A stretch of DNA of 64,000 nt from a virus, in IMG/VR virus record IMGVR_UViG_3300035670_000060, positions 49,654 through 113,653 of that record; one strand, written 5' to 3'. The notes under the pieces are model-generated. The model did not search any database. It had not been told where the DNA came from and saw only the letters and a list, made by a program, of their open reading frames with translations. This document shows positions 50,427 through 55,475 of the stretch, in pieces. How positions within the stretch are numbered: position 1 is the stretch's first letter; every line of letters begins with the position of its first letter. The translations under genes and the position numbers were made by a program.

Positions 50427-51049
50427 CTACCTGGTTCTAAGTAATTAAACAATACAAATAATTGTGGTACGTAAGTTGTAGGATATCTATTCACGATATC
50501 AGATATCATCATACCATCACCATAGATATGAATGGGCAGTCTATTTTCAGATAAAACTTTACCAGAAATAAAAATCTGTTCAACGCCAACACCACCAACA
50601 TGCATTGATCTCGGATGTGCAATTAATGTATACGTAGGATGTCTTCTCTCTGGAGTTAAACCATCTGGTATGGCATGACCTCTTTCCATAGAGCATATAA
50701 TAACTTCAGATGGTTGATCGGTTCTTTTACACTCTTCAACAACATAGTACATTCTTTTAAAGAACTGAGGATAATATCCATCATCATCGTTCATAAAACA
50801 GTACATATCGTCAGGAATAATCTCAGTGTTTTCTATGAACCAATTTATAGAATAGTTACATCTTTTCCAGAATTCCATTCCACTATTAGGACAAACATGA
50901 TGCATTATCCATGGATGAGTCGGAGTAAAAGTTTCTTTTGAATCATCGTCAGTAATTACATGCCATACAACATTTTGATTCTCTAACATCGATATGATAT
51001 CTGGTACATTACCATATCTTGCTAAAGGTGTAATCACATGAAATTTCAT
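50414..51049 (-). CDS. Glycosyltransferase-like (GT-A) protein
   Basis: HVITP..R, CFMNDDD, YGDG; in sugar cluster. Confidence 0.6.
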   Translation of the reverse strand: MKFHVITPLARYGNVPDIISMLENQNVVWHVITDDDSKETFTPTHPWIMHHVCPNSGMEFWKRCNYSINWFIENTEIIPDDMYCFMNDDDGYYPQFFKRMYYVVEECKRTDQPSEVIICSMERGHAIPDGLTPERRHPTYTLIAHPRSMHVGGVGVEQIFISGKVLSENRLPIHIYGDGMMISDIVNRYPTTYVPQLFVLFNYLEPGRWKK

Positions 51050-52374
51050 GCTGAATAAATTTTCACATTAGGGCAAGGCACAATCATTTTACCACCAGCT
51101 TTCAGATAGTCTCGCTCACGCAACAAAAACTCATCAATAAAATGCCAAGGTAAAATAAGAAGATAGTCAGGCTTTGCTGCTCGCATTTCTTCCTCACTTA
51201 CAATAGGAATATGTGTACCGATTGTCTGTAAACCAAACTTGTATGGACTTCGTTCAGCAATTGCGGTAATATGACTTGCATTCAAACCAAAATATTGTAA
51301 CAATGTATTACCCTTTGTACTTGCACCATAACCATAGATTGTTTTGCCCTCTGCTTTCACACTATGAATAATATCTAATAAATCTTTCTTCATTTTTTTC
51401 AGCCGAAGTTCAAAATTATCCCATGTGCTAAACTTTCGAATGTTGACAACGTTCTGTTCGTATGCAAGAATGCTTGCAACTCTAACTTCGCATACATCAC
51501 GAAGAGGTGCTGATCCAAACTTTGCAGGATTTGCATCACGCTTTCTGAAATAGATTCTAAAACTACCGCCATTGGTATCATTCAAAGAACAGTCTACGCA
51601 ATTAAATCCAATGCGAGAAAAGAGTCCTATTAATGATGTTAAATCATAATAATAAACATGCTCGTGGCAAATATTATCAAATGCCATTTGTTTAATCATG
51701 AGTGGTGTATAACTCATTTGAAGAACAACAACACCGTCATCATCAAGAATATCATACATGCTCTGTACAAATGGCCGTGGATCATCTAAATCATAGAACA
51801 TTGCAATACATGTAATGACTTTTACTTTTTTGTTGGCTACGGTTGTTTTGTTCCATGCATCTTTAGAGAAATAATCTTGAATGATTTCACCGTGCTTGGA
51901 TGATTCTGCTAAGTAAGTGTTATCGCAAGGATCAATACCAACACGATGCATATAAGGCGGCACATAACTCAATAATGTTCCATCATTACATGCAATATCT
52001 AACCAGATATCGTCTTTTTCTGGTTGAACTCTTGGTAAAATTTCACCAACAATTCTATTCAACTCAGCCCTCATGCTTGTATTAATACCACTTCGATACC
52101 AATACTGACCCCACATCGTATCGGATGGCGCTAGACCATGAAGTCTTGCAGCACCCAATTCATCATCTGACCATACATCTAAACTATACTTTTTACGATT
52201 CAATGTTTCATGTTCACCCTTTACAAAATCACTTACATAGTGATCACCTAAACTCACAAGTTTCATGTTGCTTCTCCGCTCGTTAATTTGAATTCTTTTC
52301 GTTTCACCAAAATTTCTCTTGTATACAGTTTTACCGCCATCTGGAGATTCGAAAATATATGTCATGGTACTCAT
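51046..52374 (-). CDS. NDP-hexose C-methyltransferase (with N-terminal 36-aa fused peptide)
   Basis: YWYRSG, LDIACNDGTLL, FDNICHEH..YY, GGSFR, GYGASTKGNTLL, PDYLLILPWHF. Confidence 0.88.
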   Translation of the reverse strand: MSTMTYIFESPDGGKTVYKRNFGETKRIQINERRSNMKLVSLGDHYVSDFVKGEHETLNRKKYSLDVWSDDELGAARLHGLAPSDTMWGQYWYRSGINTSMRAELNRIVGEILPRVQPEKDDIWLDIACNDGTLLSYVPPYMHRVGIDPCDNTYLAESSKHGEIIQDYFSKDAWNKTTVANKKVKVITCIAMFYDLDDPRPFVQSMYDILDDDGVVVLQMSYTPLMIKQMAFDNICHEHVYYYDLTSLIGLFSRIGFNCVDCSLNDTNGGSFRIYFRKRDANPAKFGSAPLRDVCEVRVASILAYEQNVVNIRKFSTWDNFELRLKKMKKDLLDIIHSVKAEGKTIYGYGASTKGNTLLQYFGLNASHITAIAERSPYKFGLQTIGTHIPIVSEEEMRAAKPDYLLILPWHFIDEFLLRERDYLKAGGKMIVPCPNVKIYSA

Positions 52375-53390
52375 TTTAATTTCTCCATTTCAATTTTACA
52401 CATTTCGTGAACTAAATCTTTAAATGTATACTCTGGCTTCCAGCCTAACTTCTTTCTTGCTTTTCTGCAATCACCAAAGATAGTAGGTACTTCAGCGGGC
52501 CTATAAAATTTTTCATTTACACGAATGATTGTTTTATCTGTTGACTTATTTACACCAATTTCGTTAAGCCCCGTACCAATCCATTCAATCTCAAAGTTTA
52601 AGTATTCTGCTACACGCTCACAAAAATCACGAACCGAATGTTCTTCACCGCTTGATACAACATAGTCATCGGGTTTGTCTTGTTGAAGCATAAGCCACAT
52701 AGCATTTACATAATCCTTAGCATGACCCCAATCTCGCCTTGCGTCTAAATTACCTAATTCGAGAATCTCTTGATTACCTAAGAAAACATTAATAAGCCCT
52801 TGTACAATCTTTCTCGTCACAAATTCAGGACCTCTTCGTGGACTTTCATGATTGAAAAGTATACCATTGCATGTATACAAACCATAACTTTCACGATAGT
52901 TCACTGTGATCCAATAGCCGTAGAGTTTTGCTACGGCATATGGACTTCTTGGATAGAATGGAGTGGTTTCTGTTTGAGGTGTTTCTCTGACTTTACCGTA
53001 TAGTTCGCTTGTAGACGCTTGATAAAATCTAACGTTTTTTTCTTTTGATAGAAGGCGAGTAGCTTCAAGTAATTTGAGAACACCGATACCATTTACATCA
53101 CCAGTGTATGTGGGAGTTTCAAAACTTACACTCACATGGCTTTGTGCTGCTAAGTTATAAATTTCATCGGGCTTAATTTTCATTATAATATTACGAACAT
53201 TTGCACAGTCCGTTAAATCACTATAATGAAAATGAATTTGATTTTTGATTGATTCAATATTTGAAAAATTTAAACCCGTACTTGCTCTTCGTACAAGTCC
53301 ATGAACTTCATAATTTTTTTCGATTAGAAGTTCTGCTAAGTAACTTCCATCTTGTCCAGTAATACCAGTAATCAATGCTATTTTTTTCAT
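52371..53390 (-). CDS. gmd: GDP-mannose 4,6-dehydratase
   Basis: ALITGITGQDGSYLAE, NLAAQSHV, QASTSELYG, PRSPYAVAK, NHESPRRG, RDWGHA. Confidence 0.97.
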   Translation of the reverse strand: MKKIALITGITGQDGSYLAELLIEKNYEVHGLVRRASTGLNFSNIESIKNQIHFHYSDLTDCANVRNIIMKIKPDEIYNLAAQSHVSVSFETPTYTGDVNGIGVLKLLEATRLLSKEKNVRFYQASTSELYGKVRETPQTETTPFYPRSPYAVAKLYGYWITVNYRESYGLYTCNGILFNHESPRRGPEFVTRKIVQGLINVFLGNQEILELGNLDARRDWGHAKDYVNAMWLMLQQDKPDDYVVSSGEEHSVRDFCERVAEYLNFEIEWIGTGLNEIGVNKSTDKTIIRVNEKFYRPAEVPTIFGDCRKARKKLGWKPEYTFKDLVHEMCKIEMEKLK

Positions 53391-53417
53391 AATACATATC
53401 ACCTTGAAATAATAGTA

Positions 53418-53439
53418 CCAGTTGATGAAGTTCAACTGG
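53418..53439. terminator. Hairpin between OMP gene and gmd
   Basis: CCAGTTGA-TGAAGT-TCAACTGG; no strong T-run. Confidence 0.5.
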
Positions 53440-53454
53440 CAAAACTATATAGCA

Positions 53455-54000
53455 TCAATATGCTAAACGTGCACCTACACCAAAAGCCTTTTCTTCAATG
53501 TCTTGAAATGATCGACTGGCCGAAACACTTACACTTAGTGCTTTTGTAACTGGCATACTTATACCAAGAAATGTTACAGTCTGTTTAGGATTACTGTCAT
53601 CCCAATTGATACGTGTTTTAGCACCTGCAAATCCCCATGCAGGTCCTAATGGCATTCCTGTAGATAGACCGACAAGCCCGTAAGTAAAGTTTCCATCCAC
53701 TTTACCATTGAATCCGTTATCGTAACCGACTCCAAAATATGTATTGACTCCTTTGATCAAGTCCTTACCCACAGTTCCTTCTACACTGTTCAACATACCA
53801 CCTTTATCAAATACAGCAGTGCGAACCTGTAGACCTAGATTCAAACCAGCCATATCTTTACCAGCCCTAAAATATTGTGCAGTGCTTTCTGCTTTGTTCC
53901 GAGTATCTTTAACTTGGTCAACGTCGAAACTTACAAAGTTTGCTGCTTTTGCGGAACCAAATGCTAAAGCCAAACATGCTGCAATTAGAGTTTTCTTCAT
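53455..54000 (-). CDS. Outer-membrane beta-barrel protein
   Basis: Signal peptide MKKTLIAACLALAFGSAKA, alternating beta strands, terminal aromatic beta-signal GVGARLAY. Confidence 0.75.
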   Translation of the reverse strand: MKKTLIAACLALAFGSAKAANFVSFDVDQVKDTRNKAESTAQYFRAGKDMAGLNLGLQVRTAVFDKGGMLNSVEGTVGKDLIKGVNTYFGVGYDNGFNGKVDGNFTYGLVGLSTGMPLGPAWGFAGAKTRINWDDSNPKQTVTFLGISMPVTKALSVSVSASRSFQDIEEKAFGVGARLAY

Positions 54001-54019
54001 ATCATCTCCTATGTTAATA

Positions 54020-54194
54020 AAAGTCGGTTGATTCTGTTGCTAAGTTCAACCGACAAAACTCCGCACTAGAGTTTAGGCTGCTAGTGCAAAACGCTCATCA
54101 TTTGCTGCGTTTATTTTGGTGCTTGATTTACGGTCATCGCCTACCGAATTGTCCACTCTCATACTCTTTGCCCCGTCGAAACCTGTACAGGCCC
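54020..54194 (-). ncRNA. ssrA: Permuted tmRNA, coding piece
   Basis: 5' GGGCCTG TACAGGTTTCGACGGGG, pk1-like CGGT..ACCG, tag (A)ANDERFALAA* at 54108/54105-54073, terminal hairpin + T-run. Confidence 0.92.
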
Positions 54195-54362
54195 TTCAGA
54201 AAGAATCTTTTTCCTATTTTTCTTATACTCACTAAATGTCATTCTATATTGAGCATTAGGATGCTTTAAATATTCTTCATACAGTCTTCCAGATTTTAAA
54301 GCGTTAATTAACCCAGCCTTCTTTCTTTTACTGGTAAACTCTTTTGAAGTTTCGTTGTGCAT
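54159..54362 (-). CDS. Basic 67-aa ORF in tmRNA intervening segment, reading into tmRNA 5' end
   Basis: SD AAGGA 6 nt before ATG, immediately after CCA; ORF fills the spacer. Confidence 0.55.
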   Translation of the reverse strand: MHNETSKEFTSKRKKAGLINALKSGRLYEEYLKHPNAQYRMTFSEYKKNRKKILSEGPVQVSTGQRV

Positions 54363-54375
54363 TTAAAATCCTTTT

Positions 54376-54436
54376 TGGTGGACCTGGGCGGAATCGAACC
54401 GCCGTCCGAAACATGTTTCTGTTCGCTTCATACAAT
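54376..54436 (-). ncRNA. ssrA: Permuted tmRNA, acceptor piece
   Basis: TGTTTC GGAC GGCGG TTCGATT CCGCC CAGGTCC ACCA; pairs with GGGCCTG giving G3.U70; TATAAT at 54443-54448; 5' end approximate. Confidence 0.92.
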
Positions 54437-54453
54437 CATAGGATTATATAGTA

Positions 54454-54804
54454 TCACACTTCCACAAATTGTTCAAGTGCTGGTGCTTTCCAATTCTTAG
54501 GTTTCATCACTTTGCCATCAGCATTCTTTAGAACGTATCCTGTGTCAGGATCAATCTTATCCAAATTGCTTCTTGCAACTTCTTCCCATGCTCGTTCTAT
54601 ATTCCAACCTTTCATATGGCAATAACCAATAATTACCCAAATCATATCCATGCAAGCGTCCAATTTCTCAGCATCATTTTTTGCGTCTATGTACTCACCG
54701 AACTCCTCATGAATTAATTTATCATACAATGAAATATTTGATGGTGAGCGGACTTGCTCACACGCTTGAATAAACCTAACTACATCGTGCACCATTTTAC
54801 TCAT
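54454..54804 (-). CDS. MazG-like/PRA-PH nucleotide pyrophosphohydrolase
   Basis: LIHEEFGE..LDACMD.IWV..G, EVARSNLDK, DGKVMKP.NW. Confidence 0.85.
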   Translation of the reverse strand: MSKMVHDVVRFIQACEQVRSPSNISLYDKLIHEEFGEYIDAKNDAEKLDACMDMIWVIIGYCHMKGWNIERAWEEVARSNLDKIDPDTGYVLKNADGKVMKPKNWKAPALEQFVEV

Positions 54805-55475
54805 GCATTCTCCCTATCGAATTGCCTACGGTATTCACGGAATAATTCTATGTAATCGTTCCGCTTCTTAATAAAGACTTGTGGCATGTCATCCTCTACT
54901 GCAATGACAATAGCAAGTCTTGAAACTGGTATTCTTGTGCGTTCTTCATACATTACAGCGTATGCAGCACATTGCATAAAGTAGTTGGTAATCCATTCTT
55001 CTTGCTTCGGTTTACTTGATGTTTTAAAATCTATAATTGATAACTTTCCGTCAAATTCTCCAATGCAGTCTACACGACCTGCAACTCGGAGATGGTGTGA
55101 GTAGAGTGGTATCTCAATTGCATGGATGTTATTAATGCGTTCATCAAGAATTGGTTGGACAGTCTTGAACATTGCTACCGAAGTTGGCATATGCCCTTCA
55201 GCCCAATTCACTTGATTGTTTAGATAGTTCTCACAAAGCGTATGGATTCTCGTACCACGCCTTGCTGCTTTCGTTGAAATGCGGTTTGCTTCTTCTTCAC
55301 CAACACGCCTACGCCATTCAAGAATACCTTCTTTACCATGCATTCCTGTAATGGTTGTAACCGACGGATACGCTTCTCCGTCTGGTGTCAGATAGAATCG
55401 TTTACCATTGATTGTTTTAGTTTGTAGATCATAATCAATATCAACGCCTACATGATTAAAGGTAACTTGTCTCAT
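54801..55475 (-). CDS. PD-(D/E)XK exonuclease (T4-like exonuclease A / Cas4-like)
   Basis: YPSVTT, RGT.IH..CE, AGRVDCI, IIDFKTS, YFMQCAAY. Confidence 0.9.
   Translation of the reverse strand: MRQVTFNHVGVDIDYDLQTKTINGKRFYLTPDGEAYPSVTTITGMHGKEGILEWRRRVGEEEANRISTKAARRGTRIHTLCENYLNNQVNWAEGHMPTSVAMFKTVQPILDERINNIHAIEIPLYSHHLRVAGRVDCIGEFDGKLSIIDFKTSSKPKQEEWITNYFMQCAAYAVMYEERTRIPVSRLAIVIAVEDDMPQVFIKKRNDYIELFREYRRQFDRENA

Follow-up and report, generated by a model that had tools for sequence, protein, structure and literature searches.

The intervening sequences of two-piece tmRNA genes are usually regarded as throw-away RNA, and the locus described here raises the question of whether such a spacer can also be, as this one appears to be, a selected messenger. 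The window (the whole stretch of DNA that was analysed, 64,000 nucleotides in length) makes up the 3'-terminal 64 kb of a 113.6-kb IMG/VR virus record that derives from a large uncultured phage and has an estimated completeness of ~63%. On the minus strand of the window, ARAGORN called its single gene, a permuted tmRNA at 53982-54468, and two Rfam models aligned there over their full length on the same strand, namely RF04321 tmRNA_permuted (118.7 bits, cut-off 47; 54073-54437) and RF01850 beta_tmRNA (103 bits, cut-off 84; 54038-54490). The gene order is that of a permuted two-piece tmRNA, i.e. acceptor piece, then spacer, then coding piece. The acceptor piece finishes with CCA at 54376 (...CAGGTCCACCA, also read as ...GGTTCGATTCCGCCCAGGTCCACCA) and the coding piece opens at 54194 with GGGCCTGTACAGGTTTCGAC (GGGCCTG), and together they form a tRNA-Ala-like acceptor stem in which GGGCCUG pairs with CAGGUCC-A-CCA and which includes G3-U70. 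Relatives carry compensatory acceptor-strand pairs (CAGGTCC/GGGCCTG in the window, CATCTCC/GGGGATG in L005 and CTGGTCC/GGGCCAG in L004), and because these strands covary, the position of G1 at 54194 is supported by more than pattern matching.

The tag reading frame ends in a hydrophobic ..LAA degron followed by a TAA stop, as in other tmRNAs, and it opens with two GCA codons, so that the tag is either AANDERFALAA or ANDERFALAA; the tags of relatives are ANDERFALAA or ANDEKFALAA, and the longer tag called by ARAGORN is merely an upstream open frame. Compared with its closest tag relatives, the window frame has an extra GCA codon (within 54101-54108, minus strand), which leaves the resume codon ambiguous. 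The original prediction, of a permuted tmRNA on the minus strand with its acceptor end at 54376 and GGGCCTG from 54194, was thus borne out by both programs; the frame for the tag that it named, ANDERFALAA, is present, although the start of that tag is ambiguous and AANDERFALAA is possible. A consensus promoter scan did not call the promoter-like box of the tmRNA unit, which was read by eye alone, and TGnTATAAT-like boxes were found at the same site in relatives. Similarly, the terminal hairpin was read by eye alone and was not called by a terminator scan, its 14-nt loop being over the limit of that tool. No SmpB turned up in the 113.6-kb phage record, which is only ~63% complete. It is established for the maturation of tmRNA and tRNA that RNase P cleaves at G1 and that the acceptor piece is cut back to CCA. 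That permuted two-piece tmRNA is processed by tRNA enzymes is stated in the passage of the 2025 tmRNA database paper (PMC11915505) that cites Keiler 2000. The features of the locus are collected in Table 1.

Table 1. Features of the two-piece tmRNA unit and its neighbours in the window
Feature	Position	Strand	Basis
Spacer (intervening sequence), 181 nt, removed on maturation	54195..54375	-	boundaries of the pieces
Spacer-borne part of the ORF: 56 codons, MHNETSKE...KKNRKKILSE, no stop codon	54195..54362	-	reading; dN/dS; family profile 129.6 bits
Read-through part of the ORF in the tmRNA 5' end: GPVQVSTGQRV plus TGA (54161-54159)	54159..54194	-	would be translated from the uncut precursor only
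Closing stem, 5' strand AAAGGAUUUU, contains SD AAGGA (54373-54369)	54365..54374	-	MFE and centroid folds pair it with 54209-54200
Closing stem, 3' strand AAGAUUCUUU, encodes K-I-L of the protein tail, then CUGAA before G1	54200..54209	-	MFE and centroid folds; relatives
Acceptor piece (T-arm, 3' acceptor strand CAGGTCC, discriminator A, CCA)	54376..54437	-	Rfam alignment; ARAGORN; acceptor-stem covariation
Coding piece (G1 at 54194, 5' acceptor strand GGGCCUG, tag frame, terminal hairpin 54054-54023, then U-run)	54023..54194	-	reading; ARAGORN; Rfam
Tag reading frame GCA GCA AAT GAT GAG CGT TTT GCA CTA GCA GCC TAA	54073..54108	-	reading; ARAGORN; Rfam
Promoter-like region of the tmRNA unit (TTGAAC ... 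TGATACTAT / TATAAT), overlaps the end of the MazG-like gene	54438..54490	-	read by eye; predicted
MazG/PRA-PH-like pyrophosphohydrolase, upstream of the tmRNA unit	54454-54804	-	
PD-(D/E)XK nuclease, upstream of the tmRNA unit	54801-55475	-	
181-residue signal-peptide protein, outer-membrane beta-barrel-like, no Pfam match, downstream of the tmRNA unit	53455-54000	-	

In the Rfam alignment the spacer appears as a 169-nt insertion at a point where the beta_tmRNA alignment skips 16 consensus positions. It starts with AAAAGGATTTTAA-ATG, i.e. AAAAGGA-TTTTAA-ATG, and holds an ORF of 67 codons (54362-54159, minus strand), of which codon 56 (GAA) ends at 54195, adjoining G1, and whose TGA lies 11 codons inside the tmRNA. 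An earlier start is excluded, because an in-frame TAA directly precedes the ATG. Both the spacer layout originally described (181 nt, CCA-AAAAGGA-TTTTAA-ATG, Lys/Arg-rich ORF) and the placing of the end of codon 56 at the tmRNA 5' nucleotide with a stop 11 codons further on were found as claimed. On its sequence, the ORF is expressible solely from the tmRNA precursor. One practical consequence concerns annotation: gene callers either skip the spacer ORF or give a protein of 67 residues, the final 11 of which derive from tmRNA sequence.

Whether this ORF is a gene was assessed by counting substitutions in its frame by the Nei-Gojobori method. Compared with L085, whose protein is 100% identical, the window ORF differs by six synonymous and no non-synonymous substitutions (dN/dS 0); the comparison with L004 (94% identity) gave 11 synonymous and three non-synonymous (dN/dS 0.04) and that with L086 (75% identity) 17.3 and 34.7 (dN/dS 0.32), whereas L086 and L088 differ by 24.5 and 36.5 respectively (dN/dS 0.12). 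Between the window and L088 (=L096; 64-65% identity, as for L098) the synonymous sites are saturated, with a pS of 0.94 and a pN of 0.24. Further relatives are P0001/P0002 (96-98% identity), P0003 (83%) and L095/L097 (65-67%), and an SD sequence lies 4-7 nt before the ATG in all spacer-borne copies. Because the substitutions are mostly synonymous, the SD sequence and ATG are kept and the interior of the spacer is weakly structured, we read the ORF as a coding sequence, and these patterns indicate that it is a genuine gene under purifying selection. The original prediction had proposed checking for a dN/dS below 1, and the values against L085, L004 and L086 run from 0 to 0.3; it had also proposed checking for conservation in related loci, where ORF, SD and ATG are indeed kept in the spacer-borne relatives, but the stop inside the tmRNA is found in six of the eight spacer lineages.

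Those six are the window group, P0003, L086, L095, L088 and, as judged by its protein tail, P0064, and in all of them no stop codon precedes G1. Among the copies in beta-type tmRNAs, the final codon runs right up to G1 (...AAG ATT CTT TCT GAx, then GGG); in L088, G1 occupies the third position of a codon. The stops then fall 3, 8, 9, 11 or 22 codons inside the tmRNA, which would give read-through extensions of these lengths that are dictated by the tmRNA sequence; the tails vary across the family, and the stop positions, being set by the tmRNA, look incidental. In L004 one extra A in an A-run puts a conserved UGAU box in frame, with a TGA at -4, and L098 has a TAA inside the spacer at -16. As read from these sequences, the non-stop frame has been kept through saturated synonymous divergence and in two tmRNA classes, yet it is not obligatory. 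By sequence, a stop-less message after processing is predicted for six of the eight spacer lineages, the window group among them, where the frame is open to G1, but not for L004, L098 or the members that lie upstream of or away from a tmRNA; since those two copies stop in the spacer, and three upstream and ~8 unlinked lineages stop normally, a non-stop message is no defining property of the family.

The reading that we favour, and which we consider reasonably likely, is that the spacer is the messenger for a 56-residue basic protein of a tmRNA-linked family, an exchangeable cargo of its slot that is stop-less at the RNase P site and coupled to the tmRNA. The 181-nt spacer of the phage two-piece tmRNA unit would thereby double as a messenger, in a slot bounded by a closing stem whose 5' strand would supply the SD sequence and ending in a ...UGAU box before G1; no stop would precede the RNase P site because the frame of the window lineage skips the slot UGA. 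On the uncut precursor, ribosomes would terminate 11 codons inside the tmRNA and release a 67-residue product. On the RNase P-cut RNA they would reach the 3' end right after codon 56 and need rescue by trans-translation, which would add (A)ANDERFALAA and direct the protein to proteolysis. Through this non-stop and tagging fate on the cut RNA, expression would be mechanically coupled to both the maturation and the activity of the tmRNA. Textbook processing by RNase P yields the non-stop consequence; what we infer beyond the sequence itself is that the RNA is cut at G1, that the cut RNA is translated, that its product is tagged, and what the protein does. In the predicted fold the closing stem of the spacer sequesters the SD sequence, and this may hold down translation of the spacer RNA once it has been cut out. 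To a phage making tmRNA in great excess, a message without a stop costs little.

We then consider where members of the family lie relative to tmRNA genes. Eleven lineages, a count that is inflated by shared descent, show a link between the family and the two-piece tmRNA genes of phages: in eight the gene is within the spacer and in three it is directly upstream. Beta-type spacers carry it in the window group (including L085), L004, L086, L095/L097 and P0003, the context and beta type of the last being taken from its protein tail alone (for P0004, the context was taken from the protein sequence or from relatives). Alpha-type spacers carry it in L088 (RF01849, 100 bits) and L098, and P0064, judged from the protein alone, has a tail (..SD-GGVLDSTGN) that reads like a spacer copy. 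Copies with their own stop are found directly upstream of alpha-type permuted tmRNAs in L238-L242, L243/L244 and L250-L252 (ORF 1201 to ~1377/1470), and the tmRNA spacers of these lineages are 59-108 nt long and hold no ORF. Between the family gene and the tmRNA there is a TTGACA-17-TATACT promoter in L243 and a TATAAATA box in L250/L252, and in L238 the acceptor piece begins within ~15 nt of the stop of the family gene.

About eight further lineages lie away from tmRNA: L089, L099-L105 and L107-L116 have none within 1.2-1.5 kb, and L092 also has none (ARAGORN only). These unlinked members look like any other gene of an operon, with a normal stop that in many cases overlaps the start of the following gene (ATGA), and their neighbours (clamp loader, Mre11-like phosphoesterase, cytidylyltransferase, DenV-like) offered no clue to function. 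The possibility that all members of the family end in tRNAs, hairpins or terminators, in the manner of ArfA, was checked on them and is rejected for this family. In one of them (L103:1620-1686) a strong hairpin (CCACCGAC...GTCGGTGG, then UUUCU) lies in the last codons, before the stop, and may be a terminator-in-ORF layout as in BrfA or ArfA; it was seen in this lineage only.

The members closest to the window protein are all tmRNA-linked. As only ~2% of phage genomes carry a tmRNA (PMC9004378), finding the gene next to a tmRNA in 11 lineages, with three layouts and two tmRNA classes represented, is not what is expected of a randomly placed small gene. Nevertheless, because ~8 lineages lie far from any tmRNA, the link may be one of a subfamily only, or may reflect shared descent together with a hotspot for small genes. 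Since the recurrent linkage includes copies with normal stops, it is the function of the protein, more than the stop-less message, that seems tied to the tmRNA, and the genomic pattern suggests that the spacer protein probably works with the phage tmRNA in ribosome rescue or on the ribosome. A more specific proposal can be held only tentatively: the protein might be a partner of trans-translation, e.g. a tmRNA- or ribosome-binding protein or a back-up rescue factor, whose synthesis would be gated by the RNA from which it is cut, such that cleavage at G1 would make its message non-stop and the new tmRNA would tag and remove the protein as soon as there is enough rescue capacity, closing a feedback loop in one transcript. 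On this view a ribosome stalled on the 3' trailer could also delay or, via recruitment of RNase R, promote the 3' maturation of the acceptor piece.

The surroundings of the spacer gene were examined by means of an acceptor-arm pattern, with which 34 beta-type tmRNAs of phages were retrieved and surveyed. Their spacers are 14-194 nt long, nearly all start with AAAGCAUA.. and end with ..UAUGCUUUUGAU, and the ends form a closing stem that covaries between loci; equivalents of the window stem, with covarying sequences, are present in 30+ related spacers. Seven of the 34 hold other ATG-initiated small genes, e.g. for membrane peptides or for a 50-residue family, and their stops lie 12-15 nt before G1 in three cases, at the built-in UGA (-4) in two and inside the tmRNA in the remaining two. 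These small proteins are encoded in the spacers of L157, L171, L206 and L229 (95-107 nt), L202 and L190 (175-177 nt) and L203 (194 nt), the products being 28-30-residue hydrophobic peptides, a 50-residue family (MKYKIVVK.../MYKIVIDD...) and a 63-residue acidic protein; the two genes that read into the tmRNA are those of L229 and L203. A frame without a stop is thus found in 6/8 lineages of the window family versus 2/7 of the other slot genes, a difference that is not significant and is phylogenetically confounded.

The slot consists of a closing stem directly after CCA, a ..UGAU-G1 box and, between them, an SD-ATG ORF, with contents that are exchangeable among near-identical tmRNA bodies. The clearest example is L005, in which the tmRNA body is near-identical to that of the window and the MazG-like neighbour is 95% identical, but the spacer is unrelated, 82 nt long and without an ORF; conversely, L004 carries the same gene as the window with a more diverged tmRNA. 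From these two loci it follows that the spacer gene is cargo that can be exchanged, rather than a built-in component of the tmRNA. An ORF-less spacer in relatives had originally been named as evidence against the proposal, and the closest tmRNA relative has exactly that, which makes the gene an accessory one. The L005 spacer (L005:1475-1556) also contains, in a long closing hairpin, a GGTTCGAATCC T-loop-like motif that may be left over from a tRNA-like element, and upstream of it the motif ATTGTATG occurs four times. Among 80 related loci fetched with the MazG-like protein, MazG-tmRNA synteny was seen in 12, and in the window the region 51046-53435 (minus strand) holds sugar-modification genes, a GDP-mannose 4,6-dehydratase and a C-methyltransferase (Methyltransf_14/23).

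Such exchange could also mean that the gene is a hitch-hiker that borrows the strong tmRNA promoter and the slot SD, in which case the 67-residue precursor product would be functional, the missing stop a tolerated accident and any tie to ribosome rescue absent. The unrelated small genes in the spacers of related tmRNAs would fit this, as would the swapping of the spacer independently of the tmRNA body, the A-run indels that switch the stop on and off (L004; L098 versus L088) and a C-terminal extension that varies freely in a family whose tails are variable anyway. Random cargo, however, is not expected to recur in three positions, i.e. in the beta spacer, in the alpha spacer and upstream of alpha tmRNA, and we regard this explanation as unlikely.

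The protein itself gave a further basis for judging what the messenger might encode. A profile search of 1.84 billion representative proteins returned 66 clusters at E<=1e-3, so that the family comprises at least 66 clusters, and its members are mostly 41-117 residues long, frequently start with MGG[MYH]DNxTS and share a core, Y-x-[ED]-Y-L-x-H-P-x-A-Q-Y-x-M-T-F-x-E-[YFW]-K, that is followed by a Lys/Arg-rich tail. AlphaFold2 run on the alignment predicted two helices (residues 4-33 and 43-55) with the HPxAQY turn between them, at a mean pLDDT of 72. In L089:1216-1842, P0006 and P0016 the family motif forms the N-terminus of a 208-215-residue protein with a helical, unannotated C-terminal domain. 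The family is uncatalogued, having no model in Pfam, NCBIfam or PHROGs: the spacer protein matched none of their models (including that of ArfA, PF03889) at E<=10, and 45 family members had no Pfam match at E<=0.1. A PDB profile search at E<=10 returned only Beclin-1 coiled coils, with no ArfA or BrfA chain; Foldseek against PDB and the ESM Atlas gave no match, and among the INPHARED phages neither tblastn nor blastn turned up anything closely related to the spacer gene.

The tails of ArfA, ArfB, SmpB and BrfA probe the empty mRNA channel, and the 56 residues of the spacer protein with their basic C-terminal tail resemble the tails of these factors. It is conceivable on this ground that the protein is an ArfA/BrfA-like back-up rescue factor or sensor made from an RNase P-generated non-stop message, which would normally be tagged and destroyed and would accumulate and free ribosomes when trans-translation fails. 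The non-stop layout of six of the eight spacer-borne lineages and the linkage to tmRNA in 11 would be in keeping with such a role. The original prediction had itself noted no similarity to ArfA, and this still stands after the profile, PDB and Foldseek searches, which argue against the idea together with the ordinary stops of the upstream and unlinked members, often overlapping the next start, and the stops in two spacer copies; we consider it improbable. Finally, that the ORF is untranslated, its open frame and conservation stemming from spacer RNA structure (the spacer ends are constrained as RNA by the closing stem) or from an assembly error (the L004 contig differs by one A in a homopolymer run), is extremely unlikely given the overwhelmingly synonymous substitutions in the ORF frame, the weak structure of the spacer interior (z = -1.75), the homologues that exist as ordinary genes and the presence of the same frame in at least eight independent assemblies.

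If the spacer is indeed a messenger for a tmRNA-linked protein, as we favour, its stop-less 3' end would be set by RNase P, right beside the RNA that handles exactly such messages. A family that follows phage tmRNA genes in three layouts also provides a concrete candidate for a phage factor acting on ribosome rescue, and with it a testable handle on the question of why phages carry tmRNA.

Circularly permuted tmRNAs (RF04321, RF01850/RF01849) are known from Caulobacter, some Betaproteobacteria and cyanobacteria, and from marine phages, e.g. Melnitz (PMC9004378). The window gene resembles them in its order of acceptor, intervening and coding sequences, its tRNA-Ala-like stem with G3-U70, its encoded CCA and its ..ALAA tag, but differs in its intervening sequence, which at ~10 times the consensus length is a protein-coding gene under selection. 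The tmRNA database paper of 2025 (PMC11915505) mentions that intervening sequences can hold a tRNA gene or a repetitive element. For a phage two-piece tmRNA, a riboswitch has been described in the 3' domain (PMC9004378), and in the literature on two-piece tmRNA that we searched we found no protein gene in intervening sequences. Two-piece tmRNA as such was already known; what is new is that the spacer of such a gene serves as a selected and mostly stop-less message encoding proteins of a family tied to tmRNA. With ArfA (PF03889) and BrfA the window gene shares a small basic protein, a message expected to lose its stop via RNA processing and a protein level that would depend on trans-translation. 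Here, however, the cut would be made by RNase P at the tmRNA 5' end, whereas theirs is made by RNase III or at a terminator, and the spacer family is without sequence or fold similarity to them and has many members with normal stops. Closer in its arrangement is an mRNA embedded in or freed from the precursor of a stable RNA, as in mitochondrial tRNA punctuation (PMC9674279) and the ORF-bearing intervening sequence of Coxiella 23S rRNA (PMC4990558), and processing in such systems can leave stop-less messages, as in the window spacer. Unlike in either of these, the flanking stable RNA of this phage system is the non-stop rescue RNA itself.
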